Shown one piece after another: positions 10,492 through 28,118 of a stretch of DNA of 37,153 nucleotides. The translations under genes and the position numbers were made by a program. Position 1 is the stretch's first letter. Each line of letters begins with the position of its first letter. Source of the DNA: an uncultured virus (IMG/VR IMGVR_UViG_3300012009_000259). Its lineage: Duplodnaviria > Heunggongvirae > Uroviricota > Caudoviricetes. Location: the IMG/VR virus record IMGVR_UViG_3300012009_000259; one strand, 5' to 3'. The notes below the pieces were generated by a model. It did no database searches. It worked only from the letters and a program-made list of their open reading frames with translations, and was not told where the DNA came from.

Positions 10492-10568
10492 GCCCCCATA
10501 GCTCAATTGGATAGAGCGCCTGGTTGCGGACTAGGAGGTTTCAAGTTCAAGTCTTGATGGGGGTGCCA
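10492..10568 (+). tRNA. tRNA-Arg(GCG)
   Basis: Cloverleaf with acceptor GCCCCCA/TGGGGGT, anticodon arm CCTGG-TTGCGGA-CTAGG, T-loop TTCAAGT, encoded CCA. Confidence 0.93.
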
Positions 10569-13614: not shown

Positions 13615-13878
13615 GTGAAGAAAAGGTGTATTGGCAGATGTGTTACCCTACCAGCGGAGAGTATTAACAGGATGGTAGAAACGGCTCGCAGGGTCACCCT
13701 AAGTGAATTCCTCTCTGAAGTGCATTACCCCAGTTGTAATCACTTGCTCTACAAATTGGGGTATGGGCCAGCGTACCCAATCGAGCGAGACCAATATGTC
13801 GAGTTTTACAGATCGACCTTCGAGGGGCAATCCTGTGTGTTCATGGTTCACAGCAGGATAGAGTATGTGTTTGTCTGA
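13615..13878 (+). CDS. Small phage-type hypothetical protein
   Basis: AGGAGG RBS and GTG at 13615; MKKRCIGRCV...HSRIEYVFV. Confidence 0.7.
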   Translation: MKKRCIGRCVTLPAESINRMVETARRVTLSEFLSEVHYPSCNHLLYKLGYGPAYPIERDQYVEFYRSTFEGQSCVFMVHSRIEYVFV

Positions 13879-13884
13879 TTGGGT

Positions 13885-13913
13885 TTGACTTTTATGCACC
13901 AATCTGGTAGAAT
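13885..13913 (+). promoter_or_regulatory. Sigma70-type promoter with palindromic spacer (copy 2)
   Basis: TTGACT-tttatgcACCAatcTGG-TAGAAT, 17-nt spacer. Confidence 0.8.
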
Positions 13914-13945
13914 ATAAGAGAACCAAGGAAGGTAAGGAGATAGCA

Positions 13946-14008
13946 GTGAAATTCTTTAGCACGTCATCCAGTTCGACAACAACCGAGGGGGTAAGATCGG
14001 TTCGGTGA
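13946..14008 (+). CDS. Putative Ser/Thr-rich attenuator leader peptide MKFFSTSSSSTTTEGVRSVR
   Basis: TAAGGAG RBS, then GTG AAA TTC TTT AGC ACG TCA TCC AGT TCG ACA ACA ACC GAG GGG GTA AGA TCG GTT CGG TGA. Lies between the promoter and the terminator upstream of the Ser/Thr tRNAs. Confidence 0.8.
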   Translation: MKFFSTSSSSTTTEGVRSVR

Positions 14009-14032
14009 TGCTGCCATAAGGAGAGTAGCTGC

Positions 14033-14067
14033 AAGAGGGGCGCACACCAGCGCCCCTCTTTTGTTTT
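14033..14067 (+). terminator. Intrinsic terminator (attenuator 3:4 hairpin) directly upstream of the tRNA array
   Basis: AAGAGGGGCGC-acacca-GCGCCCCTCTT-TTGTTTT. Confidence 0.85.
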
Positions 14068-14071
14068 ACAT

Positions 14072-14158
14072 GGAAGGGTGACAGAGTGGATTATCGTGGC
14101 CGTCTGCTAAGCGGTTTGCGTCTAAAAGCGCACGCGGGTTCGAATCCCGCCCCTTCCG
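14072..14158 (+). tRNA. tRNA-Ser(GCT)
   Basis: Acceptor GGAAGGG/CCCTTCC plus G73, loop CTGCTAA, long variable arm, GTTCGAATC; CCA not encoded. Confidence 0.93.
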
Positions 14159-14194
14159 CTCAGTACAAGATAGGACTTTAACAGAAGAAGACTC

Positions 14195-14281
14195 GGAGAG
14201 GTGTCAGAGTGGATTATCGTAACGGTTTCGAAAACCGTTGTAGTGTTACAGCTACCGTGGGTTCGAATCCCACCCTCTCCG
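14195..14281 (+). tRNA. tRNA-Ser(CGA)
   Basis: GGAGAGG/CCTCTCC plus G, ACGGT-TTCGAAA-ACCGT, long variable arm. Confidence 0.93.
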
Positions 14282-14330
14282 CTAGTATTACACCGTACCT
14301 GAAACCTGTGAGTATAATGTAACAGGTCTT

Positions 14331-14402
14331 GCCGATGTAGCTCAAAGGTAGAGCATCCGCTTCGTAAGCGGGGGGTTGTGGGTTCGAGTCCTACCTTCGG
14401 CT
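14331..14402 (+). tRNA. tRNA-Thr(CGT)
   Basis: GCCGATG/CTTCGGC, TCCGC-TTCGTAA-GCGGG, GTTCGAGTC. Confidence 0.9.
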
Positions 14403-14430
14403 TTTTATCCAACACGGTAAGGGGGCAGAT

Positions 14431-14661
14431 ATGGGGGAAGGTATCTCACTTAAGAGTGTTTTAATGCACATTCTAGTAGGGGCACCAATTCTAGTCGTGT
14501 TAGTTGCGGCTATTTATGCCGCGATGAGGCTCGTGTTTAGGTATTGGTATTTGTTAGATGAGGTGCTTTGGGGGATCGTGTTTATATCTATGTCATATAT
14601 AGCGGGGTACTTGGCAAAGGAAGCGCAGACACAGATACGTTTTGCACGATCAAAGAAGTAA
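14431..14661 (+). CDS. Small two-TM membrane protein within the tRNA array
   Basis: AAGGGGG RBS, two hydrophobic helices. Confidence 0.65.
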   Translation: MGEGISLKSVLMHILVGAPILVVLVAAIYAAMRLVFRYWYLLDEVLWGIVFISMSYIAGYLAKEAQTQIRFARSKK

Positions 14662-14666
14662 ATTCT

Positions 14667-14753
14667 GGAGGGGTGGCAGAGCGGACGAATGCGGCGGTCT
14701 AGAAAACCGTTGTGGCTGCAAGGTCACCGTGGGTTCGAATCCCACCCCCTCCG
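14667..14753 (+). tRNA. tRNA-Ser(AGA)
   Basis: GGAGGGG/CCCCTCC plus G, GCGGT-CTAGAAA-ACCGT, long variable arm. Confidence 0.9.
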
Positions 14754-14759
14754 CTACAT

Positions 14760-14831
14760 GCTGATGTAACTCAATGATAGAGTACCTGTTTTGTAAACAG
14801 GGAGTTGTGGGTTCGAATCCCACCTTCAGCT
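14760..14831 (+). tRNA. tRNA-Thr(TGT), D-loop lacks GG
   Basis: GCTGATG/CTTCAGC, CCTGT-TTTGTAA-ACAGG, GTTCGAATC. Confidence 0.85.
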
Positions 14832-14926
14832 CTTACCTGCACAGTTGAGTAGTAATTCGAAATATCACAGAACCGATACTCAAGAAGTATAATGTTCTAA
14901 GGATTCACTTAGAACGGAGGATATAA

Positions 14927-15697
14927 TTGACGGTAAGGAACGATAGAGTAGTTTCGTATGTGGATGTCTGTGATATAAAAGTGTCCCTCCCTCATTCTTA
15001 CCTTAACGTTGATAGGGTAGGTATATATATTAGATACCTGGGGAGACCAGTTGCGGTGGCCTATGACTCTATTAGCTCGATACATAGGACAGACCTTATC
15101 GAAACGGACTATAGAAGCATCGAGGCCCTCTTTGACAGATACCTTGGGGTAAGCGTGTTGGAGAGCCCCGTAGACCTTAAAGGTCTTAGGTTGGTTCCAC
15201 ACCATAGAGATGGTGTGCAACTAGAAGATGATAAAGGGAAGGTGCTTACCGCAGGCGCTTTAAGAGCCCCATCCTATTTTGGCGCTTTTATGAATGTGAG
15301 AGCGTTCCTGGAGGGGCAGCGGGACTTAGTGCGAGTTATGGCTGACTGGAGTTTGGGGCTTTCGGTAGCCAGGATTGGGGGCAGGTATTTCGTTTACAAG
15401 GGGGACAAGTCAAGGCGCGAGCGGTATAGATACTTTGAGACATACCCCTACGTTTTGAGAGATTTGCTCGCGTTAGGCGGGGAGGGGGGCAGGCATCGGC
15501 ACTATATCTTATTTAGGAATGGCTCAATTTACTTCTCTGGTGAAGGGGCAGATAAGGCCCAGTTTAGGGAAGAGGTCAGTAGAATTTTTCCAAGGGGCCT
15601 TAAGATGCTTAAGCGATTTGGGCACTTGTCGCGCCCCCAGGCAAGCGCCGAACTAAAGCCCCAGGACATGAGGGAGTATAGTTGCAGTTGGGGATAG
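14927..15697 (+). CDS. Hypothetical protein within the tRNA array
   Basis: GGAGG RBS, TTG start, 256 aa. Confidence 0.7.
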   Translation: MTVRNDRVVSYVDVCDIKVSLPHSYLNVDRVGIYIRYLGRPVAVAYDSISSIHRTDLIETDYRSIEALFDRYLGVSVLESPVDLKGLRLVPHHRDGVQLEDDKGKVLTAGALRAPSYFGAFMNVRAFLEGQRDLVRVMADWSLGLSVARIGGRYFVYKGDKSRRERYRYFETYPYVLRDLLALGGEGGRHRHYILFRNGSIYFSGEGADKAQFREEVSRIFPRGLKMLKRFGHLSRPQASAELKPQDMREYSCSWG

Positions 15698-15703
15698 TTA
15701 TTT

Positions 15704-15776
15704 GCCCATATAGCTCAGTTGGCAGAGCGCATCCTTGGTAAGGATGAGGTCGCGGGTTCAACTCCCGCTGTGGGCT
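15704..15776 (+). tRNA. tRNA-Thr(GGT)
   Basis: GCCCATA/TGTGGGC, CATCC-TTGGTAA-GGATG. Confidence 0.93.
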
Positions 15777-15781
15777 CTTAT

Positions 15782-15868
15782 GGAAGGGTGTCAGAGTGGA
15801 TTATCGTGACGGTCTTGAAAACCGTTGTAGCTGTGAGGCTACCGAGGGTTCGAATCCCTCCCCTTCCG
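15782..15868 (+). tRNA. tRNA-Ser(TGA)
   Basis: GGAAGGG/CCCTTCC plus G, ACGGT-CTTGAAA-ACCGT, long variable arm. Confidence 0.93.
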
Positions 15869-15874
15869 CTAAAT

Positions 15875-15947
15875 GCCGATGTAGCACAATTGGTAGTGCA
15901 TCCGCTTTGTAAGCGGGGGGTTGTGGGTTCGAGTCCCACCTTCGGCT
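15875..15947 (+). tRNA. tRNA-Thr(TGT), second copy
   Basis: GCCGATG/CTTCGGC, TCCGC-TTTGTAA-GCGGG. Confidence 0.9.
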
Positions 15948-16093
15948 CTGTAATCACACCATCAGGTCATGCGCTTCATCAACCTCACTTAGCGTACAAA
16001 CTCTGCTTGCAAAGTCTTCTAAAAGTGACCCTGGCATATATATCCTTCCATGCGCCTTTTCTTTATTATATTGCATAGGGCACAGTTAATAGC

Positions 16094-16190
16094 GTAGGTT
16101 GGGGGGGTGGGGGGCATTTACAGAAAGTAATTTAGTTGGGAGCAAAAACCTTTTTACTTTCCAAAATACCCCCCCATCCCCCCTACTAAA
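16094..16190. repeat. G/C-tract palindromic dispersed repeat, copy B (complete)
   Basis: GGGGGGGTGGGGGGCATTT..GAAAGTAA-core-TTACTTTC..AAATACCCCCCCATCCCCCC. Confidence 0.8.
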
Positions 16191-16216
16191 ATCTCTATAC
16201 GCCGAAAATCTGCCCC

Positions 16217-16245
16217 TTGACAAAAATGCACCAGTGTGGTAACCT
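16217..16245 (+). promoter_or_regulatory. Sigma70-type promoter with palindromic spacer (copy 3)
   Basis: TTGACA-aaaatgcACCAgtgTGG-TAACCT, 17-nt spacer. Confidence 0.75.
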
Positions 16246-16305
16246 TAGAGATGTAAACATTATATGCTTCCCATGAAGGGGAAGCCACAGCCAAGGAGGG
16301 CTAGA

Positions 16306-16980
16306 ATGTTAAGCAAAGTTATGACTGAGGCAGTTCGATACACCCGCAAAGAAGTAGAAGAACTCACCCCTTTTAGCGCCTACGATATTACACTTCGCAT
16401 CCGCGATGCGAACCCTGACCTGTACGTAAGACACGACAATACCGTTCGTGGCATTGTTCATGGGTACATGGCGTGCCTAATAGACAAAGGGGAATACAAG
16501 CGAAAGTTGGTGAAAGACCCCGAAAGCGGTGCGAATTATTACCTCTACTACCCTAACATTAACCAAGATACGCTTGACTTTGTAAAGGGGTGGGTGAGGG
16601 CACGATACACCTTTACTCCCCAATCTATTGCTATAGAAATGAGCAAAGAGGGAGTTTCTCAGCAGAGTGTAACTCGTGCTATTGAGGTAACTATCCAAGA
16701 TGCGGAATATAAAACGGTAGAGAGGGAGCACGATGCGGAAATTTTTTACCTCTATCGTCCTGTAGGCATTATACAGGATGTTTCGCGGGGTTCGAGTTGG
16801 CTGGAAGGTTGGCAGTACACCAGTGGTGTATTGACTATCTATAAACAGGATGGTAAGGTCTTCATGTATGACGACGTAGATGCTGACTGTGTAGTTGGCC
16901 TCGCGCAAGCCGAGAGCGTTGGTCGCTACTTCAACCGTCACATCAAAAACAACTACGCATACACCTCCGTTATTCCGTAG
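16306..16980 (+). CDS. KTSC-domain protein with two N-terminal repeats
   Basis: AGGAGG RBS. C-terminal SSWLEGWQY..GVLTIY..GKVFMYDDV......L.QAESVGRYFNRHIKNNY is the KTSC signature. Confidence 0.8.
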   Translation: MLSKVMTEAVRYTRKEVEELTPFSAYDITLRIRDANPDLYVRHDNTVRGIVHGYMACLIDKGEYKRKLVKDPESGANYYLYYPNINQDTLDFVKGWVRARYTFTPQSIAIEMSKEGVSQQSVTRAIEVTIQDAEYKTVEREHDAEIFYLYRPVGIIQDVSRGSSWLEGWQYTSGVLTIYKQDGKVFMYDDVDADCVVGLAQAESVGRYFNRHIKNNYAYTSVIP

Positions 16981-16992
16981 TAGAGGTTCTAT

Positions 16993-17024
16993 AGGGGCGT
17001 CTTGGGTCGAACGCCAGGACGCCC
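16993..17024 (+). other. Intergenic GC-rich hairpin
   Basis: GGGGCGTCTTGG..CCAGGACGCCCC between the KTSC and PARP genes; weak U-tract. Confidence 0.55.
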
Positions 17025-17062
17025 CTTCAGTATAAACCTTCAGTATAAAGGAGGAAACGCCG

Positions 17063-18265
17063 ATGAACGGGCGACTGGGATGGAATGACATTCACGAAGG
17101 CGTAATCAACGACGGATTTCACCTCACCCTGCAATGTACAGACCTGAACGGCAACAGCAACAAGGTCTGGAAGGTGGAGTGGGACAACGGCACCATGAGT
17201 GCCTATTGGGGTAGGGTTGGCGCTAAACTACAATCTTCTTCGAAGAGGGCTACTCCTCACAGCGTGGTCAAGAAGATACGCTCCAAAAGAAAGAAAGGCT
17301 ACGAGATCGTTTCCGAGGGATTTCTTCAGGAAGTCGAAATCGACGCTCCTGAGTCAGTCCGTAAGTTTCTTCGTTGGGCAACAATGTCAGCGAACAACGA
17401 CATTGCATCGTATTACACGGGAGATGTGGGCGGCCTCTCTCCTGCACAGATACAGGCAGGCCAGCAACAGATTGATCTAATTTCCTCTCTTACCCAACAG
17501 CCTTATGACCTACACCAGGTCATAAAAGAAGTAGAGCGTTACTACACGCTTATTCCCTCCAAACTGCCTCATCGTATTGTCCCCGAACAAGTGACAAGGG
17601 ATTTTATTAAAAATCTAGATGAGCAGCAAGAGAGGCTTCGGCAGTTAAGCGCGGCCCAAAAAGGACTCGCCGCGCAACAGGCAGACAAAGTTAGTGTAGA
17701 AGACCTTTTTGGTTGCGGGGTTTTTGAGACTGCGGAAGAACGCAGAGAGGAGATCACCAGGAAGGTGCTGGAGACTGCGCGAAACAAGATTTCCCGTAGA
17801 GACATTCTTGAGGTAGTGAGCCTGGAGTCCCCTGAGCGAAAGGAGAGGTACGAGTCTCTCCCGATAAAGAATGAGGAACCAATACTCTTCCACGGCACAA
17901 AGACGCCCTATGTGCGACACATTGTCCGTCAGGGGCTAGTCCTGTCGAAGGCGGGAACGGGGACTCTTTTTGGGAGAGGGCTTTATTTCGGTAATGAATC
18001 CTCGAAGGCCCTCTCCTACGCAAAGGGGGGAGAGGTTAGGATGTTCTTCATTGCTCGTGTTAATCGAGGCCGAAGTTTTGACCCTACCTCAAAACTAAGC
18101 CAACACGATGTCAGGCGTCTACTAGAACAAGGGTATCATTCCGTATGGGCTCGGAAGGCGCGGCAGATTGATGGTGTTTATCGAGGCTCCCTTGACCATG
18201 ATGAGATCACCATTTACGAAGAGGCTCGACATGATCTAACAGATGTGGTAGTCTTAGCATCTTAA
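17063..18265 (+). CDS. WGR-domain poly(ADP-ribose) polymerase (bacterial PARP)
   Basis: WGR domain (NSNKVW..AYWGRVG..K.KKGY), regulatory-domain-like YYTLIPSKL, catalytic LFHGT / GTLFGRGLYFG..SSKALSY / HDEITIY (H-Y-E triad). Confidence 0.9.
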   Translation: MNGRLGWNDIHEGVINDGFHLTLQCTDLNGNSNKVWKVEWDNGTMSAYWGRVGAKLQSSSKRATPHSVVKKIRSKRKKGYEIVSEGFLQEVEIDAPESVRKFLRWATMSANNDIASYYTGDVGGLSPAQIQAGQQQIDLISSLTQQPYDLHQVIKEVERYYTLIPSKLPHRIVPEQVTRDFIKNLDEQQERLRQLSAAQKGLAAQQADKVSVEDLFGCGVFETAEERREEITRKVLETARNKISRRDILEVVSLESPERKERYESLPIKNEEPILFHGTKTPYVRHIVRQGLVLSKAGTGTLFGRGLYFGNESSKALSYAKGGEVRMFFIARVNRGRSFDPTSKLSQHDVRRLLEQGYHSVWARKARQIDGVYRGSLDHDEITIYEEARHDLTDVVVLAS

Positions 18266-18285
18266 GTTACAGATAGCATTACAGA

Positions 18286-18312
18286 CCCCCCAGGTCTCCC
18301 TGGGGGGCTTCT
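18286..18312. terminator. Intrinsic terminator after the PARP gene
   Basis: CCCCCCAGG-tctc-CCTGGGGGG-CTTCT. Confidence 0.7.
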
Positions 18313-18518
18313 ATTACCTACTTATCTCCAAGAACGTAGGGGACGTAGTACTGAGCGTACATATCGTCCCACATCTTAATCACTTCGTCTGCCCCAACAT
18401 GGAGTAGATGAGATGCGATTACCCCAACTATGGCATAGGCCCTTTCTCCCCAAAGACCATACGCTTTCAGTATCTCTTCAGTAACCTGCTGAACATTAGG
18501 GTTGCTATCTTTAACCGC

Positions 18519-18555
18519 CCCCCACCACCTTATTAAACAGCATAACGTATAATAG
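18519..18555 (+). repeat. Duplicated promoter-like segment (copy 1)
   Basis: CCCCCACCACCTTATTAAACAGCATAACGTATAATAG, one mismatch to 25352-25388. Confidence 0.8.
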
Positions 18556-18560
18556 AATAG

Positions 18561-18761
18561 GGTGTAGGGGAAAAACGCAAGGGGCTTGTTGTGGGCACCC
18601 GCATCCGAAGAAGATTTTCCCACAACTTATCAGGCAAGGAGTACAAGGTTGTGACTCAAGGAGAGCCTCCTTTGTGGGTTAAGCACATGGAAATCAAGAG
18701 GAGATTAAGCGCAGGTAACAAGATACCTGACAGATACCAAAACCCCCCACGGGAGTTTTAA
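18561..18761 (+). pseudogene. 5'-truncated paralog of the 25883/26154 domain family
   Basis: Frame reads RKGLVVGT..HNLSGKEYKVV...LWVKHMEIKRRLSAGNKIPDRY, against QKGIIVET..HNPSGLVYKVV...CWIKKNEVRRRVSTGNPIPQKY at 25883. Confidence 0.7.
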
Positions 18762-18859
18762 GGCTTTTGAAGCCCAAAGAGTGGATCACACTCCTATACC
18801 AGATCAATCATTAGAAGGGATTAGAAAAGACGTGCGCGAGCGCAAAAGGAAGGTGGCAA

Positions 18860-19492
18860 ATGTTTAAAACGGTGATGCAATACGACAGGCACGCTACGCT
18901 CATAAACGTTTACAAAAGGCATGGCGAGGTTTTTTTCGAAATTGCGAGAACTAGCCTTGTGCAAGAGGCTCGCATTTTGCAAGGGAGAGGGAACCTCCTA
19001 AGGGCAGCAATAGAGCAGGGGGGCTCAGAGGTAGACATATTGGCAAAAAAACTGCGCACGTATCCTGTGCGAGTCGAGGTTAAAGTGGGGAGTGGCGAAA
19101 CGACGCTACTCTTTCAGTGTGAGGATATATCTGTCCAAGTCCCCCACCCCCTAGAGTGGTACTCGAAGGTAACCTCTGGGAAAAGTGGGATATATACTCC
19201 CACCGAAAAAGAGATTCGTATAGGCGAATCGTCTGATGATTGGGCACCCGCAATCCTGTGGCGTGATGGGATTGTTACCCTCGAACACACGAAGCTAGTG
19301 TGGGTGAGCTGGAAGATGGATTCGATCAAAAAAATGGTTCACTGTTACATGAGCCCTAAGGATGAAGGCTGCCGGAGGGTTCAAGAGTCCTGGGTCATAA
19401 AGGACAAGTGCTTGAAGGTGTACGGGTTCTGCCATTTCGGGGTCGAAGCCACTGATAAAATAATGTCTTGGGCATTGCGAAATGTTAGATAG
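18860..19492 (+). CDS. Hypothetical protein
   Basis: 210-aa ORF with AAGGAAGG RBS. Confidence 0.7.
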   Translation: MFKTVMQYDRHATLINVYKRHGEVFFEIARTSLVQEARILQGRGNLLRAAIEQGGSEVDILAKKLRTYPVRVEVKVGSGETTLLFQCEDISVQVPHPLEWYSKVTSGKSGIYTPTEKEIRIGESSDDWAPAILWRDGIVTLEHTKLVWVSWKMDSIKKMVHCYMSPKDEGCRRVQESWVIKDKCLKVYGFCHFGVEATDKIMSWALRNVR

Positions 19493-19640
19493 ACACATCA
19501 AGAAAATACAGGAAGATGCAATCACACTGGCTAATGCTTGGAGGTTGCTAAGCAAGGCAGTGTATGGTGGGGACACTCTTGTGTTGGGTCATTTATATGA
19601 GTACGGTCTGTCTGTATGCCCGTGTCTCGCAGCACCCTAA
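19482..19640 (+). pseudogene. Truncated paralog of the 28169 gene N-terminus
   Basis: KKIQEDAITLANAWRLLSKAVYGGDTLVLGHLYE, against GKIQGAVINLYDIWGFLVEATKGDDAALGYLYD at 28169. Confidence 0.55.
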
Positions 19641-20007
19641 CCCCCCAGATGGAACGGGGGCAGAGCCGCTCCCAGGCTCACCTTTTAATTTCTTGAGCAA
19701 CTCCCACATAGTAGGAGAGTGTGCCAACGAAGATTGTCTTGGGAATGCGGTCATTTGTCGCGGGATGTATAATGACGGGAAGGGGGTGTTGCGGATAGGA
19801 AAAGTGAAGTCTGGGGAGTGGGGGCCAACCCGTAGTGTCCTACGCATTTTTCTCCAAAACGCTGCCGTGGCTACTCTCTCCACTCCGAGGAACCTTGCTG
19901 AGAGTTTTCGCGGTGCTGCTGAGAAGGACGCCCCCATTTATGTCTGGTACGACCTCGCAAAGGGGCGTTATCTCTTTGGGAGTGCAAACACTTACTGCCA
20001 AAAATGA
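19597..20007 (+). CDS. Hypothetical protein, N-truncated paralog of 29451..29927
   Basis: Shared CLYARV.Q.PNPPDGTGA.PLPGSP..F...S..VGECA.EDC.G. Confidence 0.65.
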   Translation: MSTVCLYARVSQHPNPPDGTGAEPLPGSPFNFLSNSHIVGECANEDCLGNAVICRGMYNDGKGVLRIGKVKSGEWGPTRSVLRIFLQNAAVATLSTPRNLAESFRGAAEKDAPIYVWYDLAKGRYLFGSANTYCQK

Positions 20008-20047
20008 GGGCAGATATTTGTCCAATATAGGCGTATAGGAGGCATCA

Positions 20048-20746
20048 ATGCTAACTGAGCGAGATGTTAGTGATCTAATTTGTGCTGGCCCAAAAGCGCT
20101 AGAACCATTCGCGGTTCATTACCCAGGCCTTTCGGGTGTATCCCCCGACGAGAACTTTTTCTTTTGCAGTGCAGACATGTTTTTGGTTGCCTGGCTTAGG
20201 AAGGAGCAACCTAGGTATTTGTACTGGGTTAACGAGGACGGTGTAGACAAGAAGAAGTTGACAAAAAAAGAAGCCCATATACTGTTTGGCAAAGTACGCG
20301 AAGCAGAAAAACGAAAGCAACAGAAAATAGACGCTAAAAAGAGGAAACGACAAAACTACATTGATAAAAATAGAGAGCGGCTTGTCAGAGACGCCTTATG
20401 TTTTCTTTACACCCTTTCAGAAGAACAGATGACTGATACTCGTTATAACAAAGACCTTCAAGAGTATCTAGAAGAATGGCTCATTGATTTGAAGGGAAGT
20501 AAGAAATATGCTGATATATGCCAGAAGGGGCAACAGATAATACAGGACAGAATCCTCGAAGGATGGTCTTTGTATGAAAAAGGCCCCAAACTAGCTTATA
20601 TGGATCACGGGCTAATACAGCAGGAGTCCTTCTTCGGGCACCCTAAGTACAGTTTTGCATTTGTTATAGAAGAAATATACCATCCTGATTGGGGGACGGT
20701 TGATTATCTGAATATAGAAGATCAAATAAAGTTAATAGATAGATAG
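20048..20746 (+). CDS. Hypothetical protein
   Basis: AGGAGG RBS, 232 aa. Confidence 0.75.
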   Translation: MLTERDVSDLICAGPKALEPFAVHYPGLSGVSPDENFFFCSADMFLVAWLRKEQPRYLYWVNEDGVDKKKLTKKEAHILFGKVREAEKRKQQKIDAKKRKRQNYIDKNRERLVRDALCFLYTLSEEQMTDTRYNKDLQEYLEEWLIDLKGSKKYADICQKGQQIIQDRILEGWSLYEKGPKLAYMDHGLIQQESFFGHPKYSFAFVIEEIYHPDWGTVDYLNIEDQIKLIDR

Positions 20747-20792
20747 TGCGCCTTCCTCCACCGTATGAAAGCCGATGGTTTCCAAGCACGAA
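20747..20792. mobile_element. Possible orphan IS200/IS605-family end
   Basis: CGCCTTCCTCCACCGTATGAAAGCCGATGGTTTCC resembles the TTCCTCCCC..AAAG..GGGGTTTCC terminal hairpins of IS605-type elements; no tnpA/tnpB nearby. Confidence 0.35.
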
Positions 20793-21067
20793 ACCATCAT
20801 AATGACAAAAGCATTGTTAAAGAGGCAGGCTGCCTAATCTACTTTTATCTAAACATAGACCCAGGAGTCCGTAATGGACGTTAATAGCGTAATCAAAAAA
20901 GTCTTGTCGAGCCCCCAGAAGGTTGACGATGAAGGCTTATTGCCCGAATGGAATAGGCGAATTTCTATTAACTGAATCTGCTCATAGAACTAGACTGACA
21001 CAGTGTTTTGCGAGGATTGGTCAAACTCGTTTCACTGTAATCTACAACATAGAGAGAGAGGTATTAA

Positions 21068-23935
21068 ATGTCACAACTGCAATATATTGGATTTAGGAAG
21101 AAATTACCAACGGACAAATACGAGCAGGTCATAGACAGGGATGGGTACAGCTGTGAGGAAGATGTTGTAGAGGGAACTAGAGTATATCGAGCCTCTCACG
21201 GATTATCAGTTTCCTTCAACATAGGGGAAAAAGTCTATATCACAGCATTGCCTACTGAAGATGGTTCAATGGAGGAAGGGGCGCAACAATACCCCTCTAA
21301 CGCGATTGTATTCGCAGACCCTATTTCTATAGAGGATGCTGTCGCATTACTTGTGCAAAACAAAGAAGCCCCGCAGTTCAAAGAATCTATTAGCGCACTG
21401 TTTACTTACCTAGTATTAAATGCAGATGCTCCTTGTGCAGGATTTAGAACGCTCTCCCCCCTCACGGAAATATATGTCCCATCAAAAATAGAAGATGCTC
21501 GCCCCTTTTTAAGCCATGATTGGGCTTTACAGAATGAGGGGCGCATAGCGCCTGAGATTTGGAGGGCAGCAATCTTCGGGGGGGAAAAATATAATCAGTG
21601 CGCTTATGAAGTATGTAAGTTATCTCCTCCTAAAGACATCCTTTTGTATCTAAATAGTCGCCTTGACCTAGAAAGCCTTGATATTGATAATCCTGCTCCT
21701 GAATTCTTGGGGGCTCTGTTCTTCGCTCAGGGGGATAGGGAGTTTGATGGTAAGTGGCTCCTAAAGGCGTATAAGGCCTGGGGGGATAAGTCACCTGTGC
21801 AATTGAAAGAGGCGCTAACTAATCAACTGGCCCAAATTCCATATAAGACATTGTGGAAAGAATACAAAACCAAGCGATGTTTAGATTTTGTTGGTGAGTA
21901 TGTAGAAGAGAACATTGACCGTGCTCCCATTGATGTGGCCTGGCGTATGTGGAAAGAACGCATGATAGAGAAAGGGGGGGCTCCTGACCCACTGACTGCT
22001 CGTGTGGCTGAAAACATAGACGAGATTGGGGCAGAAAAGTACCCCGACCTATGGGCTATTAGAAAGCAATACGGAGATCAAGCCCCCGATTTTGTATTAG
22101 AGGTCTTAAAAGATTGGGGTGAATACCTGTCACAAGCTACTTCATCTGAAAAGAGTAAGGCTCTCTCATTGTCCAAAGAGATTGTAAAAACAGACCCCAA
22201 TCTTAGAACGCCCGTCTCTTTAGCCGTGGCACGTCAATTCGGGAGGTGTGACTTCATTGAGGATATATGGGGGGACGCCCACACCGACGAGTGGCGCAAG
22301 GGCCACGACATGGGAAAGGCGAGCACTGCGGATATATCTTTTGCTTGGCAGCGTTCAGATAAAGCCAGACTTCAACTACTGAAAGACGTAGCTAGAACAG
22401 GCGACACTGAGCAGGTCTATGAAGTATGGCATAACGCCACAAGAGAGCAACGAAAAGCGGCATGGAAATTAAAAAGCGTTAGAAACAACACAAACATGTT
22501 TAGTGGCAGTCCTACTGATCTAGCATATTTATTAAAATGTGATGGTGCTGAAGAAATAAGAGAGAAGTTTGTCGAATATACCAGGCGTAATTGGGATAAA
22601 GATAATCGGAAGCGTGTCGGGAATTTGTTGGTGGAATTTAGTACTAACGATGAGAGAGATCGTGAAGTAAGAGAGTTTTTAAGAGACAGGATACGCCCAA
22701 GACCAGGTGATGATTTTATATTACAAGCTATCCGAAATTGGGAACCCTCTGTTGTTTTATCATGTTTTACGCCAGAAGAAATAAAGCATGCAGTAACAAT
22801 GAATATCAGGAGTGAACATTGGGGACTCTATTTAATGTACTGTCTTGGCGACTATCCTTTTGATATATTCAAGGAGGTTATAGATGTTATTCTTGATCGT
22901 CTAGCTAGGAATAGGGCATATAGTAAAGTGCGAGCTTGGTTTTTTGAAGATAGTCTAGACTCATATAAGGGAGAGAAACAGAAGTATTTCAAGGAAGGGT
23001 TTATCAGGGTTGCATCACAAGGCATTCGTAGAGGTGATAAAAAGGAGTACTTAATAGGTCTCTTTAAGATATTTAGAGAGATGCCTAAAAACGAATGGGA
23101 TGACAGGCTTTTGGCCGCTGCCATGGAAAATTTTAGCACCAAACATTTTAAAGAGGTTTATGCTGCGCGTTCTCAGAATGTGTGTATGCACTTTATATCT
23201 CATCATCCTGAGCATATTGATGTTAGCCCTATTATTAGAAAATTAGATATATCATCACTCCGTAGTGTAATATATAAAGAATCTGACACTCATACAGTTG
23301 TTTCCGCAGCCAGGGTCTTGGCTGAAAGAAGCAAGAGAGTATCCGTAGATGACCTAATAGACAACATAAAACTCATGTGGGAAGAAGTTCCTAGAGATAT
23401 GTGGGATAGTAATATGCTCCGTGAGGCCATCGGGAACCTTGATACAGATGAGTTACATCAGGTGGTAGAAAAACTGCCTATATCAGCACTTCCATCAGAC
23501 CTGGTGGTTAATGCCATGATGGAAATGGATGTAAAGAATTTGTGCTGGTTTATAGAGGTGGTCGGCGTTAGGACATGGACTCCTGAACACTCTTTACGAT
23601 ATGCCAAGGACTTACCCTTGGCTAATCTGATGTCTTTTCTTAGCCGAGTTCCTGTCAACCGCATACACCCTCATCTCTTCTTCAAGGTATCACAAGTGCC
23701 CCTTGCTTTCAAAGAGGTTTTAACACAATGGGGCGATTACAAGAGGAGGTCTTTTATCCTTTTCCTGATCAAGAACAAGAAGAACGCCAAGATATTGAGA
23801 GGCATCATACAGGCAGGGAATATCACTCCTGATGAGGCATGGCCCCCAAGATTAAGCAAGGTCATAGTCAATGCAGGTGGTCAGTGGGGTAGGGCTACTG
23901 AGAACTGGACATCGACTAAGAAGCAAATTACTTAG
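21068..23935 (+). CDS. Large (955 aa) predicted alpha-helical protein of unknown function
   Basis: GAGG RBS, long ORF with amphipathic helical character, no recognised catalytic motif. Confidence 0.8.
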   Translation: MSQLQYIGFRKKLPTDKYEQVIDRDGYSCEEDVVEGTRVYRASHGLSVSFNIGEKVYITALPTEDGSMEEGAQQYPSNAIVFADPISIEDAVALLVQNKEAPQFKESISALFTYLVLNADAPCAGFRTLSPLTEIYVPSKIEDARPFLSHDWALQNEGRIAPEIWRAAIFGGEKYNQCAYEVCKLSPPKDILLYLNSRLDLESLDIDNPAPEFLGALFFAQGDREFDGKWLLKAYKAWGDKSPVQLKEALTNQLAQIPYKTLWKEYKTKRCLDFVGEYVEENIDRAPIDVAWRMWKERMIEKGGAPDPLTARVAENIDEIGAEKYPDLWAIRKQYGDQAPDFVLEVLKDWGEYLSQATSSEKSKALSLSKEIVKTDPNLRTPVSLAVARQFGRCDFIEDIWGDAHTDEWRKGHDMGKASTADISFAWQRSDKARLQLLKDVARTGDTEQVYEVWHNATREQRKAAWKLKSVRNNTNMFSGSPTDLAYLLKCDGAEEIREKFVEYTRRNWDKDNRKRVGNLLVEFSTNDERDREVREFLRDRIRPRPGDDFILQAIRNWEPSVVLSCFTPEEIKHAVTMNIRSEHWGLYLMYCLGDYPFDIFKEVIDVILDRLARNRAYSKVRAWFFEDSLDSYKGEKQKYFKEGFIRVASQGIRRGDKKEYLIGLFKIFREMPKNEWDDRLLAAAMENFSTKHFKEVYAARSQNVCMHFISHHPEHIDVSPIIRKLDISSLRSVIYKESDTHTVVSAARVLAERSKRVSVDDLIDNIKLMWEEVPRDMWDSNMLREAIGNLDTDELHQVVEKLPISALPSDLVVNAMMEMDVKNLCWFIEVVGVRTWTPEHSLRYAKDLPLANLMSFLSRVPVNRIHPHLFFKVSQVPLAFKEVLTQWGDYKRRSFILFLIKNKKNAKILRGIIQAGNITPDEAWPPRLSKVIVNAGGQWGRATENWTSTKKQIT

Positions 23936-23939
23936 AGTC

Positions 23940-24116
23940 TATATAGCGCCCCTCAAAGTCAGGCAATCGACATTGGGGGGCTTCGCTCATTTCGGCCCAA
24001 AAGCCACCCATAAGATAATGACATGGGCGATTAGCCACATCAGCGTCTAACGGGAGACGCGCAAGGTGAAGCAATATGTCTATCCGTACCAGAGCAAATG
24101 AGGGGCGCCGTATATA
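23940..24116. ncRNA. Candidate structured non-coding RNA
   Basis: Nested pairings GCGCCCCTCA/TGAGGGGCGC, GACAT/ATGTC and GCTTCGC/GTGAAGC, plus two inner hairpins, in an intergenic gap with no ORF in the track. Confidence 0.4.
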
Positions 24117-24203
24117 CAGGCAGGGTTGACCCTAACGCCCCCAAGATCATTCTGTGGTATCTGTCTTTGAAGGTGTCTACCATCGTACACATGGAGGTAA
24201 ACT

Positions 24204-24677
24204 ATGAAAAAGAGAGTGTATTACACATCGTTCGGAAAAAATGAAGAGGTAATAGAGTCTTTGGATACCTCTGATGGCACAACCTACGTTATTGCCAAAG
24301 AGGGTAGACAAAGGGGTTCGCTCGCTGATTGCTTCTATGTCATGGCCCGCCTCGTTAGGGTTGCTGATAGAAAAGCAATAGGCATAGACAAGAAGGTGGG
24401 GAGAGGGAAGAAGGATATTAAGAGCACCGATACAACAGTTATAACTTCTGACCGCCAAAGCACCGTGAGGGTTGCTATCCACGACAAGTTGCTCCATGAT
24501 GCTATTTTCTATTGTGACTATGGTAACGTAGTACATATTGTGGTTAAAGAAGAAGGTAATCAGGCCACAATTGTGCGCATGTGGAAGGAAGGGAAAGTAT
24601 TAAACATCATGTTAGGGAGGGGGACAACTGTGTTGACCATCCTTCCAGCGGATATAATCTCTAAGGGGGCCGCATGA
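24204..24677 (+). CDS. Hypothetical protein, paralog of 25416..25865
   Basis: GGAGG RBS; shared YTSFGK, LA(D/E)CF.VMA and RMWK motifs. Confidence 0.75.
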   Translation: MKKRVYYTSFGKNEEVIESLDTSDGTTYVIAKEGRQRGSLADCFYVMARLVRVADRKAIGIDKKVGRGKKDIKSTDTTVITSDRQSTVRVAIHDKLLHDAIFYCDYGNVVHIVVKEEGNQATIVRMWKEGKVLNIMLGRGTTVLTILPADIISKGAA

Positions 24678-25369
24678 AGTGGGTCTTCAAGACTGGGATT
24701 GTGGCAAAGGGCTTATCTGGGGGGGCAATGCGAACGGCCCTTTTTAAGCCGCACATACACAATGATAAAGTAGGTTGTAACCTGGTGCTCTTGTATGAGT
24801 CCTACAGATATGGGAAGATAAAACCTCCACTTTCTGAAGAGCAAAAGAGGGGTATACAAGGACAGGTTGACACATTCAGCCCAGGTGACTCAGGGGCAGA
24901 GGATATTAGACCTCCACCCCTAATAGACAGGCACACCCCTCCTAAACTCTACAAAGGGGGAGTAGTCATCCTTAAAACAAGGGACTTATCCTTACGCCTT
25001 GGACTTGATGACTTTTTCTCGCTTGAGGAAATAATCCACAAGACCCAGAGTGGTGTTATGCTTAGCAAAGGCAAGGGCAACATACGGCAAGGGGTAGCCT
25101 GGGACAACGGTCAAGGTGTTATAACCTCTATTAAAGTAGTCTCCATGAATGTACCCGTGGCAGTATTTAGGGCGGGGGCTCTAGAATGCAAAGAAGGAAA
25201 AAGTCTCACAGTGCGCACTAAGCGCGAAGTATTTGGTTTTTCTCCATCCATTCCATCCGTGGAAGTTGTATCCCTATCAACTTCCTACCGCAAATCTATC
25301 ACGGAGGAGCCAGCGCGGTACTTGTTTGACTGGGTGCTTGAGAATACAAATCCCCCACCACCTTATTAA
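24674..25369 (+). CDS. Hypothetical protein
   Basis: ATGA overlap with the upstream gene. Confidence 0.7.
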   Translation: MKWVFKTGIVAKGLSGGAMRTALFKPHIHNDKVGCNLVLLYESYRYGKIKPPLSEEQKRGIQGQVDTFSPGDSGAEDIRPPPLIDRHTPPKLYKGGVVILKTRDLSLRLGLDDFFSLEEIIHKTQSGVMLSKGKGNIRQGVAWDNGQGVITSIKVVSMNVPVAVFRAGALECKEGKSLTVRTKREVFGFSPSIPSVEVVSLSTSYRKSITEEPARYLFDWVLENTNPPPPY

Positions 25370-25388
25370 GCAGCATAACGTATAATAG
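25352..25388 (+). repeat. Duplicated promoter-like segment (copy 2)
   Basis: CCCCCACCACCTTATTAAGCAGCATAACGTATAATAG. Confidence 0.8.
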
Positions 25389-25415
25389 GGCATAGACAAC
25401 CAACAGGGGGGCTTT

Positions 25416-25865
25416 ATGGGCGGCATTTACACCTCGTTTGGGAAGCCTGTAGGTGGGGTTATCTCAGAAGTGTTGAGCACCAAGATTTCAGAAGTCTACA
25501 TACTTGCCAAAGGAAGAGACCGATCTGGTATGCTTGCGGAATGCTTCTCGGTTATGGCAACTATGCTAAATGTAGGCGAGAAAGATACTGTAGAACTAGA
25601 TCGTCAAGTAAGACGAAGGGGCCGCCATGAGAGTGCTTATATAGAAGCAGTTGGAGAAGGTGAAGCCTGTTTATCCATAAAAATCCCAAGCAAGATTCTC
25701 CACAGCGCATGTTGCTGTTTTGACCACGGCAGTGTAACTCATATCCTGGTCAGGAGTGGAGAACAGGCCAAAGTAATTCGCATGTGGAAACATAGCAGAA
25801 ACCCACCTCTAAACATTGCGATAGGTCAGCCGCTGTCAAAGATATGCTGCTCCCCAGTAGTATAG
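25416..25865 (+). CDS. Hypothetical protein, paralog of 24204..24677
   Basis: AGGGGG RBS; motifs shared with 24204. Confidence 0.75.
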   Translation: MGGIYTSFGKPVGGVISEVLSTKISEVYILAKGRDRSGMLAECFSVMATMLNVGEKDTVELDRQVRRRGRHESAYIEAVGEGEACLSIKIPSKILHSACCCFDHGSVTHILVRSGEQAKVIRMWKHSRNPPLNIAIGQPLSKICCSPVV

Positions 25866-25882
25866 TAGCGTAGGAGGATAAG

Positions 25883-26161
25883 ATGCCGAAACCCTATGGA
25901 GTTGGAGATTTAATACTATATCGTTTCTTTAATGTTCCTGAGCAGACTTTCTACAAGCCCCCTCAAAAGGGCATCATTGTAGAGACACAAGAGTCTAAGA
26001 GGACTCAACATAACCCATCGGGGTTGGTGTATAAAGTTGTTGGGAAAGACCGAATAGCGTGTTGGATAAAGAAGAATGAGGTTCGAAGGCGCGTTAGTAC
26101 AGGCAACCCTATTCCCCAGAAATACCGTGACTGCCTAAGTCCACGAGGGCGCAATGCCTAG
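25883..26161 (+). CDS. Small SH3/KOW-like beta-barrel protein (one repeat)
   Basis: AGGAGG RBS; Y.VGDL..YR.....GIIV....YKV....W(I/V)K. Confidence 0.7.
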   Translation: MPKPYGVGDLILYRFFNVPEQTFYKPPQKGIIVETQESKRTQHNPSGLVYKVVGKDRIACWIKKNEVRRRVSTGNPIPQKYRDCLSPRGRNA

Positions 26162-26684
26162 ATACACCCCAGGAGATCAAGTAGTCTTTCGGTTCTACGA
26201 CTGCGATGAGGGTTTATATGGAGACAGGCATGTTGGAGTAGTCATTGACTTTCGCTCAGTCCAAAAGCGTAAGTGTGCCCCTTCGGGCATGGAGTACAAG
26301 ATAGTAGATGAGTCCCGTATAGCACACTGGGTTAAACAGCGTGCGATTATAAGACTTGTGAGAAAACACAACGCGCAGCAGCAGAGGTACAAAGAAGAGG
26401 TGGGGACACCCCCTGAAGGGCCATATTCAGTGGGTGACCTCGTAGAGTACAGGTTGTACAACTGCTGTGATAAGCGATATTATGGCGAGATGCGCATGGG
26501 GATAGTTGCAGATGAAAGACAAAGACACACCCCGCAGTGTAAAAATAACCTATTCGAGTTTATGGTGATAAGTCATAGCCCCCAAAGAGTGCTGTGGGTA
26601 AAAGCCTTTGAGGTTAAAAGGGTAATAAGCAGAGGTAACCCAGTCCCCCAACACCCTGACCTAAAAATAGGAGAAAAAGCATGA
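26154..26684 (+). CDS. SH3/KOW-like protein with two tandem repeats
   Basis: YTPGDQVVFRFYDC.. and YSVGDLVEYRLYNC.. repeats. Confidence 0.75.
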   Translation: MPRYTPGDQVVFRFYDCDEGLYGDRHVGVVIDFRSVQKRKCAPSGMEYKIVDESRIAHWVKQRAIIRLVRKHNAQQQRYKEEVGTPPEGPYSVGDLVEYRLYNCCDKRYYGEMRMGIVADERQRHTPQCKNNLFEFMVISHSPQRVLWVKAFEVKRVISRGNPVPQHPDLKIGEKA

Positions 26685-26971
26685 CGAGAGTGGTGAGCAA
26701 AAACAACCTCCCCCCAAGAAAGGGGAGTCTAGTGGTATATCATATACCGCAGGTGTCGCATAAGGCGACGTTTTATGTAGTAGTGCCATCGGTGGATGCA
26801 GCAATTAGCATCATTAACCTATTAGCCGAATATGACCTGTTCCAATACCGAAGCAGAATCAAGGGCGACTACGCCAATACTAGTGGGTTGATAACTTTTG
26901 ATGGCAAAGAGTGGGCGGAATGGGAAAATAAGGATGGCTATACTATTTCTGACATTATGAGGGGGGCGTAG
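26681..26971 (+). CDS. Phage P22 gp17-like protein
   Basis: V(Y/W)HIPQV...F.V.V.SV......L(A)(E/D)YD.FQY...IK.DY.N..GL....W.(E/D)W pattern, recalled from the gp17 family. Confidence 0.7.
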   Translation: MTRVVSKNNLPPRKGSLVVYHIPQVSHKATFYVVVPSVDAAISIINLLAEYDLFQYRSRIKGDYANTSGLITFDGKEWAEWENKDGYTISDIMRGA

Positions 26972-27384
26972 TGGCTATAAAGGCAATACCTCAGCCTAGC
27001 GATTCGCGGGCAATAGTCCACAAGGTGCATAGTAACGCAGTAGGCATAACCTTGTTCGACTGTGAGAAGCACGAGGATGCAGGGGAAGTACTTATCTATC
27101 CCCAAGACGAGAGTTGGGAACTGTGGCTATCGTGGAACATGGTTCAAAAAGGTGTCTATATCAACTTGAGCCCCAAAAGCAGGAACGATAGCGAGATTGT
27201 TCTGTTACAGTTCCCTAATACGAAAATGCTCTCTTGGGAAAATGTCAAAGAACGTGCTGTGCTAGAGTCACGAAGAGCATACTCTTTCACCTGGCTGGAC
27301 GGAAGTGTCATGGTTACTTTTATGGTGAGAAACATCCACCCCGCCGAGGGTTGGATGGATATAGAAGTTGTTGTAGAAGCATAG
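26971..27384 (+). CDS. Hypothetical protein
   Basis: GTG start overlapping the upstream stop, GAGGGGG RBS. Confidence 0.65.
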   Translation: MAIKAIPQPSDSRAIVHKVHSNAVGITLFDCEKHEDAGEVLIYPQDESWELWLSWNMVQKGVYINLSPKSRNDSEIVLLQFPNTKMLSWENVKERAVLESRRAYSFTWLDGSVMVTFMVRNIHPAEGWMDIEVVVEA

Positions 27385-27507
27385 CAACAGGGGGGTTTGA
27401 TGTCTAATGCACAATGGTTAATTATGGGCAGTGATGAGAGGCGTAACGATGGGTAACAATATGAGGAATTGGTCATACATACCCACAAACCCAACGTGGG
27501 GTCTAAA

Positions 27508-27825
27508 ATGACAAAAACGGTAAAACGCCCCTGCCTCGTCTGCGGTTCGCCGGTGACTTTCTACTGCTATCTGAAAGAGGAAGTTGGGCATAGAGTTTGT
27601 TGGCACGAAACCTGCTTTATCCTATCCCGTGAAGAAGTAGGATGGGCTGACGCGGAGTGCAAGAAGTGCGGATTTCACATACCCGCTTACTATGTGGAGA
27701 AAAGAATGCAGGGTAAACCGGAAGGATTTATAGTGTCGGGGGGGGAAGTAAACCCCCTCATCTATATCCCCACTGTGCTTAAGGAGTGCAATGCGGCTGC
27801 AATGATTGCAAAAGGGGTAAAATGA
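27508..27825 (+). CDS. Small Cys-rich (zinc-binding) protein
   Basis: CLVC..CWHETC..CKKC. Confidence 0.6.
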   Translation: MTKTVKRPCLVCGSPVTFYCYLKEEVGHRVCWHETCFILSREEVGWADAECKKCGFHIPAYYVEKRMQGKPEGFIVSGGEVNPLIYIPTVLKECNAAAMIAKGVK

Positions 27826-28022
27826 CGATACGGTATACAACTGACATATTTTGCGATCAGTGCGCAAACTGGCTGCATGGGACGATCTCAGAACAACCCA
27901 AGGGCCAGGAATGCTTAGATATGGCTAGAGAATTGGGGTGGACAAGGAAAGTAATCAGGGGGCGAAAGGTTGATCTATGCCCCGAATGCTCAGACAAGAT
28001 GGAGAGGGCATCTAAGCATTGA
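27822..28022 (+). CDS. Small zinc-finger protein
   Basis: ATGA overlap; CDQC ... GW ... DLCPEC. Confidence 0.7.
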   Translation: MTIRYTTDIFCDQCANWLHGTISEQPKGQECLDMARELGWTRKVIRGRKVDLCPECSDKMERASKH

Positions 28023-28029
28023 ATATCTT

Positions 28030-28118
28030 GGAAGGATGGCAGAGTCAGGCTAATTGCGCCTGCTTGGAGAGCAGGTATAGCCGAAAGGCTATCGGGGGTT
28101 CGAATCCCTCTCCTTCCG
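28030..28118 (+). tRNA. tRNA-Ser(GGA)
   Basis: GGAAGGA/TCCTTCC plus G, CCTGC-TTGGAGA-GCAGG, variable arm with GAAA tetraloop. Confidence 0.92.

Follow-up and report, generated by a model that had tools for sequence, protein, structure and literature searches.

The sequence analysed here, referred to as the window, is a 37,153-nucleotide (nt) stretch of DNA from an uncultured virus of the class Caudoviricetes (IMG/VR record IMGVR_UViG_3300012009_000259). It carries ten transfer RNA (tRNA) genes, all on the plus strand, of which five are specific for serine (Ser), four for threonine (Thr) and one for arginine (Arg). The same ten genes that ARAGORN identifies are matched by Rfam family RF00005, with scores of 45.9 to 70.6 bits compared with a gathering score of 29. 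Eight of the Ser and Thr genes form a block that spans positions 14072-15948, and this block, together with the leader that lies immediately upstream of it, is our main subject. The tRNA genes, and two open reading frames (ORFs) embedded in the block that encode 76 and 256 amino acids (aa), are as follows.

10492-10568, plus strand: tRNA-Arg(GCG), with an encoded CCA end and a G1·U72 pair
14072-14158, plus strand: tRNA-Ser(GCU), with a weakened D-stem and no encoded CCA
14195-14281, plus strand: tRNA-Ser(CGA), first member of Ser-Thr unit 1, with a weakened D-stem
14331-14402, plus strand: tRNA-Thr(CGU), with a U6·U67 mismatch and U73
14431-14661, plus strand: 76-aa ORF, hydrophobic-looking sequence, no family match
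14667-14753, plus strand: tRNA-Ser(AGA), Ser-Thr unit 2, with A34 and an intact D-stem
14760-14831, plus strand: tRNA-Thr(UGU) copy a, 6 nt past tRNA-Ser(AGA), with a U6·U67 mismatch
14927-15697, plus strand: 256-aa ORF, no assigned function
15704-15776, plus strand: tRNA-Thr(GGU)
15782-15868, plus strand: tRNA-Ser(UGA), Ser-Thr unit 3, with a weakened D-stem
15875-15947, plus strand: tRNA-Thr(UGU) copy b, 6 nt past tRNA-Ser(UGA), with a U6·U67 mismatch
28030-28118, plus strand: tRNA-Ser(GGA), solitary, outside the block

The original prediction, that nine of the ten genes are Ser or Thr genes and that the tenth is an Arg gene, is borne out by both programs. As it also proposed, both families are fully decoded, because each of the six Ser and four Thr codons is covered by an encoded anticodon. 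Thr(UGU) is the sole anticodon that is duplicated in the window. An encoded CCA end is found only in tRNA-Arg among the window tRNAs. Bacteria usually carry the Arg anticodon ACG rather than GCG, and A34, as in tRNA-Ser(AGA), is rare among them. The solitary tRNA-Ser(GGA) has G37 in its loop (UUGGAGA), whereas the other four Ser genes have A37.

Several of these genes are local duplicates with switched anticodons, again in agreement with the original prediction. The Thr(CGU) gene is 91% identical to the Thr(UGU) gene at 15875, Ser(CGA) is 85% identical to Ser(UGA), and the string said to be common to three Ser genes is an identical 16-nt stretch of the D-arm in Ser(GCU), Ser(CGA) and Ser(UGA). 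The duplicated unit consists of a Ser gene, a spacer of 5-49 nt and a Thr gene. A repeat finder recovers 113 nt of it, comprising the Ser gene, the spacer and the start of the Thr gene, three times (family D3), and from one unit to the next the paired anticodons are CGA/CGU, AGA/UGU and UGA/UGU. The block thus arose by threefold copying of a Ser-Thr pair, in the course of which the anticodons changed, and Ser(GCU) and Thr(GGU) were added to it.

Among the paralogues, compensatory double changes occur at 9 of the 21 predicted pairs in the Thr genes, none of which is broken, and at 11 of 27 in the Ser genes; thus, the genes evolve as working tRNAs. The exceptions in the stems are U6·U67 in three Thr genes and the weakened D-stem in three Ser genes. 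If the ten genes were independent draws, at least nine of them would fall into two families with a probability of ~4e-6 for this pair of families, and of at most 8e-4 for any two. However, because the genes are paralogues, the nonrandomness resides in the retention of duplicates and the diversification of their anticodons, not in sampling.

The region upstream of the first tRNA gene contains the following elements.

13885-13913, plus strand: extended promoter of the leader, with TTGACT, a 17-nt spacer that includes the conserved sequence ATGCACCAAT.TGG, and TAGAAT
13934-13939, plus strand: Shine-Dalgarno sequence AAGGAG, 6 nt before the GTG start, read from the sequence
13946-14008, plus strand: leader ORF of 20 codons and UGA, with a GTG start, (M)KFFSTSSSSTTTEGVRSVR
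13951-13968, plus strand: attenuator segment 1, inside the leader ORF, paired with segment 2 in the minimum free energy (MFE) fold
13958-13984, plus strand: run of nine Ser/Thr codons, AGC ACG TCA TCC AGT TCG ACA ACA ACC
14003-14025, plus strand: attenuator segment 2, of which 14004-14015 is the antiterminator, including the leader stop codon
14033-14067, plus strand: intrinsic terminator, with an 11-bp stem (8 G-C pairs) and a 6-nt loop, followed by the tract TTTTGTTTT

Ser and Thr account for 10 of the 20 codons of the leader ORF (P = 2.7e-5 at the window background). The run of nine is the longest Ser/Thr run in the six frames of the window, the next longest having 7 and 6 codons, and a run of nine appears anywhere in the window in only one of 200 shuffles. 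It falls in a 119-nt interval that represents 0.16% of the sequence. Of the eight different Ser/Thr anticodons encoded in the window, seven have a Watson-Crick cognate among the eight different codons of the run; only Ser(AGA) lacks one. ACA, the codon of the duplicated Thr(UGU), appears twice in the run. At least eight distinct codons among nine would be expected with P = 0.06.

The leader RNA is predicted to fold with unusual stability (z = -4.1, with none of 200 shuffles as stable). Its segments can form three helices. Helix 1:2 has a duplex energy of -15.6 kcal/mol, which is equaled by 23 of 2000 shuffles. Helix 2:3, also at -15.6 kcal/mol, pairs 14004-14015 with 14039-14048, which comprises the top of the 5' half of the terminator and its loop. 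The terminator stem itself (helix 3:4) pairs 14033-14043 with 14050-14060, at -22 kcal/mol (terminator scan and duplex energy). Helices 1:2 and 2:3 share segment 2, and the three helices are mutually exclusive. The leader stop codon (14006-14008) lies within segment 2; therefore, a ribosome that completes the leader covers the antiterminator. Only 11 nt separate the hairpin, and 4 nt the U-tract, from the first tRNA gene, and no further promoter is found between the leader and that gene.

The three helices were also evaluated with a cotranscriptional model, in which the transcript was cut at 14049, before the 3' half of the terminator, and a ribosome footprint was imposed. Helix 2:3 is the MFE structure at three of the five stall positions (A site at 13958, 13964 or 13976). 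In the truncated transcript it is not the MFE structure if the ribosome is absent or occupies the stop codon.

With moderate confidence, we read eight of the nine Ser/Thr tRNA genes as one conditional operon that is placed behind a bivalent Ser/Thr leader-peptide attenuator. From the arrangement of the leader we infer how such a switch would operate. Transcription that starts at the element-specific promoter would have to cross the 20-codon leader and then the intrinsic terminator. With unhindered translation of the leader, a ribosome that has reached the stop codon would block the antiterminator, the terminator would form, and the tRNA genes would stay off. When the ribosome stalls on Ser/Thr codons, it would cover segment 1, segment 2 would be free to pair with the 5' half of the terminator, and the polymerase would read through into Ser(GCU), Ser(CGA) and Thr(CGU), and probably into the remaining five tRNA genes and the two embedded ORFs. 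A terminator scan detects no other strong terminator-like site between 14072 and 15948, so the block is probably cotranscribed to its end. The new tRNAs would relieve the stall, and the operon would shut again by negative feedback.

The shortage that is sensed is probably one of usable Ser and Thr tRNA, and not of the amino acids. The response consists of tRNA, and extra tRNA would be of no help if the amino acid were missing. This logic connects the attenuator with the earlier idea of a tRNA-depleting activity specific for Ser and Thr.

Several observations weigh against an attenuator. Helix 2:3 is only modestly better than chance, since 92 of 2000 shuffles are as good, and 6.1% of 1004 random window segments pair equally well with segment 3. 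Two of the five stall positions fail in the cotranscriptional model: a different, weak pairing forms at 13970, and helix 1:2 re-forms at 13982. A switch at equilibrium was considered and rejected, because the terminator wins throughout (P = 0.94-0.97); thus, the attenuator model depends on kinetics. Transcription of the latter half of the block could also start on its own from a second promoter-like site at 14864-14893, and Ser(GGA) lies outside the gated block. Searches of phages, plasmids, IMG/VR and 401 Chloroflexota genomes yielded no relatives, and hence the leader has no support from covariation or conservation.

Attenuators of amino-acid operons (trp, his, leu, thr, ilv and pheA) comprise a promoter, a short ORF with a codon run, the alternative helices 1:2, 2:3 and 3:4, and a terminator with a U-tract. 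The leader described here resembles them in having a promoter, a short ORF with a run of regulatory codons, and three overlapping helices, the last of which is a terminator. It also resembles them in the placement of the stop codon, by which finished translation would block the antiterminator. As with the thr and ilv leaders, the sensor is multivalent, in this case for two amino acids. However, it would control tRNA genes instead of enzymes, its codons are for Ser and Thr, and it resides on a mobile or viral element. Unlike the known attenuators, it matches no curated leader family, and we found no relatives that would show conservation. A permissive Rfam scan of 13850-14080 gave six matches, none of them to a leader family and all far below the gathering scores. 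Full-text literature searches, in which subscription journals are thinly covered, gave no published case of a leader-peptide attenuator that controls tRNA genes; this result is not proof of absence.

The promoter of the leader scores 10 of 12 in a promoter scan and has the TG of an extended -10 element. It belongs to a 29-nt motif, conserved in its spacer as well, that is present three times in the window (10445-10473, 13885-13913 and 16217-16245); none is expected, on the basis of 100 shuffles. The copy at 10445 directly precedes tRNA-Arg(GCG), with neither a leader nor a terminator in between. Because the motif is conserved three times and one copy stands directly before a tRNA gene, it represents a real class of tRNA-driving promoter. 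The leader and terminator are interposed solely before the Ser/Thr genes. The copy at 16217 lies just after the tRNA block and precedes a pair of genes for a KTSC-domain protein and a protein that resembles poly(ADP-ribose) polymerases (PARPs). The three copies suggest a common regulator or sigma factor, and coexpression of the tRNAs with the PARP-like module. The motif has no match in IMG/VR, nor in any of the 401 Chloroflexota genomes searched.

Mobile tRNA operons with a comparable lifestyle have been described as L-arrays, for example the trn operon of an Anabaena plasmid. These are accessory operons on mobile replicons with sigma-70-type promoters, and they are silent by default and switched on under translational stress (PMC8421152), a behavior that is predicted for the present block. 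L-arrays contain up to 43 mixed tRNA genes, are rarely periodic, and are controlled through promoter repeats. In contrast, the block described here has two families only, is periodic, and is placed behind a leader peptide and a terminator.

With its 37 kb, the window forms the end of a replicon that measures at least 90 kb, and accounts for at most ~40% of it. A protein index also places the window proteins on a contig of 189,846 bp. In three sequencing runs of a microbial-mat sample, long contigs of 89,667, 64,107 and 57,116 bp match the last 20 kb of the window with zero differences. All three stop at approximately window position 37,090, and they therefore begin 20-52 kb upstream of the window. 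The tRNA census thus covers the window and not the replicon. Accordingly, the original description of a tRNA complement that is almost entirely Ser and Thr is correct for the window, but it does not stand as a description of the complement of the replicon.

This limit gives rise to the alternative that survives best. The element may be a huge phage whose tRNA genes form a broad repertoire in several blocks, the Ser/Thr block being the one that by chance falls in the window; there would then be no pressure specific to Ser and Thr, and each block, or none, would have its own control. The position of the window, as the final 37 kb of a sequence of at least 90-190 kb, agrees with this explanation, as does the spread of the tRNA genes over 18 kb with one Arg gene among them, which makes further genes elsewhere likely. 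We regard it as a serious possibility, if not quite an expectation. However, eight adjacent genes of two families, which are duplicates made in place and lie behind a leader with a Ser/Thr-only run, are a Ser/Thr-specific unit regardless of what the rest of the replicon encodes, and tRNA-Arg stands behind the same class of promoter without a leader.

Most of the remaining sequence has few recognizable relatives. Only 6-7 of the 48 window ORFs match families in Pfam, PHROGs, NCBIfam or PADLOC, and no gene for a capsid, portal, integrase or replication protein was found among the 48 with these collections. We regard the element as a large phage-like element (a phage or a plasmid) of a mat bacterium. 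Other features of the window are listed below.

4480-6168, plus strand: VirB4/TraC/HerA-like ATPase, far below family cut-offs, with PADLOC mad8 as the best match (6.5e-18)
10576-11103: HNH endonuclease, 8 nt after tRNA-Arg, matching phrog_16726 (2e-30), with weak matches to PtuB (E ~5e-6)
16103-16185: palindromic repeat with a G7TG6 run and a matching C7ATC6 run, a complete copy just after the tRNA block
16264-16980: KTSC-domain protein, preceding the PARP-like gene
17063-18265, plus strand: PARP-like protein with WGR, regulatory and catalytic domains
18519-18555 and 25352-25388: 37-nt repeat with TATAAT at its end, copies 97% identical
26681-26971, plus strand: homologue of the P22 gp17 superinfection-exclusion protein (Pfam GP17, 3e-17)
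31819-32433 and 32492-33124, minus strand: two adjacent paralogous ORFs, with a 92-nt repeat that is 71% identical
33381-33887, minus strand: 5' fragment of pyrG (CTP synthase), residues 1 to ~137 of ~540, followed by an unrelated tail
37084-37153: partial inverted copy of the palindromic repeat in the last 70 nt of the window, 76% identical over 68 nt

A word-based search of 5.8 billion proteins found no relative of the ATPase, within the limits of that method, and two large window proteins have none in IMG/VR. The 256-aa ORF of the tRNA block has one relative, with 33% identity, among 1.84 billion representatives. The locus of this relative has no tRNA gene within 10 kb and no other gene in common with the window. 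The same ORF has no usable Atlas match, and its structure model is unusable (predicted local distance difference test score 41.7). In the PARP-like protein, the His and Tyr motifs of PARP1 are kept across the aligned part. The KTSC/PARP-like pair is an unusual cargo for a prokaryotic element.

The palindromic repeat at 37084-37153 is where all three long contigs stop, and a further copy is present on a contig of 518 bp. It resembles a dispersed repeat at which assemblies break off. The 37-nt repeat that ends in TATAAT is probably a second class of promoter.

Searches for relatives of the tRNA block were similarly unproductive. Comparison of the element with phages and plasmids by megablast produced only matches of tRNA size, a search with the pattern of the Ser-Thr junction gave no match, and a search with the Ser D-arm string gave four chance matches, none of which was associated with a Ser tRNA. 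Capture of the tRNAs from a host was considered and rejected, because the element tRNAs are just 69-84% identical to the best of the cellular tRNAs compared.

The pyrG fragment is probably a captured piece of a host gene. Recoding or an intron in pyrG was rejected as an explanation, because none of the frames continues the fragment. The nearest sequences among the best 80 of its 599 confirmed matches are those of Chloroflexota (Anaerolineae, 82%; Thermoflexus, 78%). In the Thr genes, the U73 discriminator and almost all of the acceptor stem agree with those of all four Chloroflexota tRNA-Thr sequences compared. Together, these features may point, weakly, to a host lineage within the Chloroflexota. 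The pointer is weak because of the 69-84% identity of the tRNAs and because the G+C content of the element, 0.48, is far lower than the 0.61-0.68 of the Chloroflexota genomes sampled.

A further proposal is that a nuclease or modifying toxin of the host or of a competitor attacks Ser and Thr tRNAs, and that the genes in the window are resistant replacements. This proposal, which we consider possible but doubtful, is compatible with the attenuator and would name its trigger. The logic of the leader favors it, by implying that tRNA, and not amino acid, runs short. In three Ser genes, the D-stem has the same 1-2 pairs, compared with 3 pairs in all eight cellular Chloroflexota tRNA-Ser examined, and three Thr genes have U6·U67 where all four cellular Chloroflexota tRNA-Thr have C6-G67. 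However, odd stems are common in phage tRNAs anyway.

Suitable activities have been described. The HNH nuclease of a type I-A retron depletes all four Escherichia coli tRNA-Ser, and PtuB-type HNH nucleases cleave tRNAs (PMC12475279). Thr(UGU) is cleaved both by P2 Old (PMC12445682) and by AriB of the PARIS system (PMC12409363), and phage tRNA-Thr(UGU) rescues. Cleavage of Ser tRNAs with NGA anticodons by VapC-type toxins has been discussed for mycobacteriophages (PMC10264068), MenT3 is reported to prefer tRNA-Ser, and an ADP-ribosylating toxin modifies tRNA-Thr(GGU) (PMC13617354). The anticodons in the window match known nuclease targets, in that Thr(UGU) is the only one present twice and all Ser isoacceptors are included.

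The phage tRNAs that counter such nucleases (those of T5 against PARIS AriB, tRNA-Thr against P2 Old, and the tRNA-Tyr of T5 against retron Ec78) offer a comparison. Like them, the element carries Thr(UGU), the prime target that AriB and P2 Old have in common, and its full set of Ser isoacceptors corresponds to the target set of the type I-A retron. In contrast to them, it has two whole isoacceptor families that are locally duplicated and apparently inducible.

Other evidence is unfavorable to a depleting activity. No single known system targets both the Ser and the Thr family, and the type I-A retron nuclease also cleaved the tRNA-Ser of phage T5 (PMC12475279). In a comparison of recognition sites that covered P2 Old only, the anticodon arms of both Thr(UGU) copies and of Thr(CGU) keep the paired CNG and the A37 that this enzyme needs and resemble cellular arms, so there is no visible evasion of P2 Old. 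The anticodon-arm changes described for Old-resistant phage tRNAs (PMC12445682) are likewise not seen here. No tRNA-targeting toxin or defense gene was recognized in the window beyond generic HNH and ATPase matches. Thus, the selection by a Ser/Thr-specific depleting activity that the original prediction proposed draws partial support from the composition of the element's proteins, the codon usage, the Ser/Thr codons of the leader and the published nucleases, but finds none in the toxin content of the window or in evasion of Old.

Joining this trigger to the attenuator, one can tentatively picture the block as an inducible counterdefense, in which a sensor of Ser/Thr decoding detects a host nuclease, supplies a private set of tRNAs and then shuts itself off. 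We consider this specific version rather unlikely.

The genes might instead meet a demand, either from abundant Ser/Thr-rich proteins encoded elsewhere on the replicon or from host isoacceptors that fit codons ending in A or T poorly. A gated design would serve a peak of demand too. For codon usage, we compared the element with 60-kb samples of two G+C-rich Chloroflexota genomes, which are stand-ins for a host that is itself a guess, so that the comparison is indicative only. TCT, TCA, AGT, ACT and ACA are used two to three times more than in the stand-ins, which is in favor of this explanation. However, the element prefers codons ending in A or T in every family. The mismatch thus extends to all families and is largest for Arg, where AGA and AGG make up 56% of codons compared with 12% and 6% in the stand-ins, yet the window has no matching tRNAs. 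If the genes compensated for codon usage, tRNA-Arg(UCU/CCU) and others would therefore be expected, and not a set confined to Ser and Thr, which agrees with the earlier view that the genes do not simply follow codon usage. Moreover, C34 and G34 isoacceptors for codons ending in G or C are supplied too, and the host assignment comes from the pyrG fragment alone, with at most 82% identity among the matches listed. Enrichment of Ser and Thr in the proteins of the element, which would have counted against the original prediction, was not found in the 48 window ORFs, where Ser makes up 6.86% and Thr 4.72% of 10,450 aa, and all ten Ser/Thr codons are used fairly evenly (12-29% within each family). 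These data support the conclusion that neither Ser/Thr richness nor simple codon compensation explains the set, the stand-in comparison being indicative, and supply for demand is therefore improbable.

Over the whole window the codon usage is flat, with AGA and AGG together at 55% of Arg codons and GGG representing 37% of Gly codons at 48% G+C, in strong contrast to the G+C-rich Chloroflexota sampled.

It is very improbable that the element itself inactivates the Ser and Thr tRNAs of its host, for example with its HNH or PARP-like protein, and replaces them: the KTSC/PARP genes do lie directly after the block behind the same class of promoter as the tRNAs, a toxin that ADP-ribosylates tRNA-Thr(GGU) exists (PMC13617354), and the HNH protein weakly matches PtuB, whose type cleaves tRNAs, but the domain layout of the PARP-like protein is that of DNA-break-sensing PARPs, a different class from the tRNA-modifying toxin, and for the HNH protein the match to phage homing-endonuclease families (phrog_16726) is by far the better one.

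An attenuated Ser/Thr operon would change how such genes are viewed. Phage tRNA genes are usually seen as constitutive helpers that adjust codon usage and, lately, as decoys against tRNA-cleaving immunity. What stands out in the present case is the restriction to two amino acids, a complete isoacceptor set made in place by duplication of a Ser-Thr unit, and a leaderless tRNA-Arg gene that provides an internal contrast. A vague idea of Ser/Thr depletion thereby becomes a testable circuit that comprises a promoter, a 20-codon sensor, three helices and eight tRNAs. If this reading is true, the element gauges the decoding capacity of the cell for two amino acids and supplies tRNA on demand, and leader-peptide attenuation would be extended from amino-acid supply to tRNA supply. 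The list of codons in the sensor would then be a readout of the tRNAs that the element expects to lose. Should the shortage indeed be caused by a host nuclease, the block would represent an immune-evasion circuit in which the ribosome itself is the sensor of damage.

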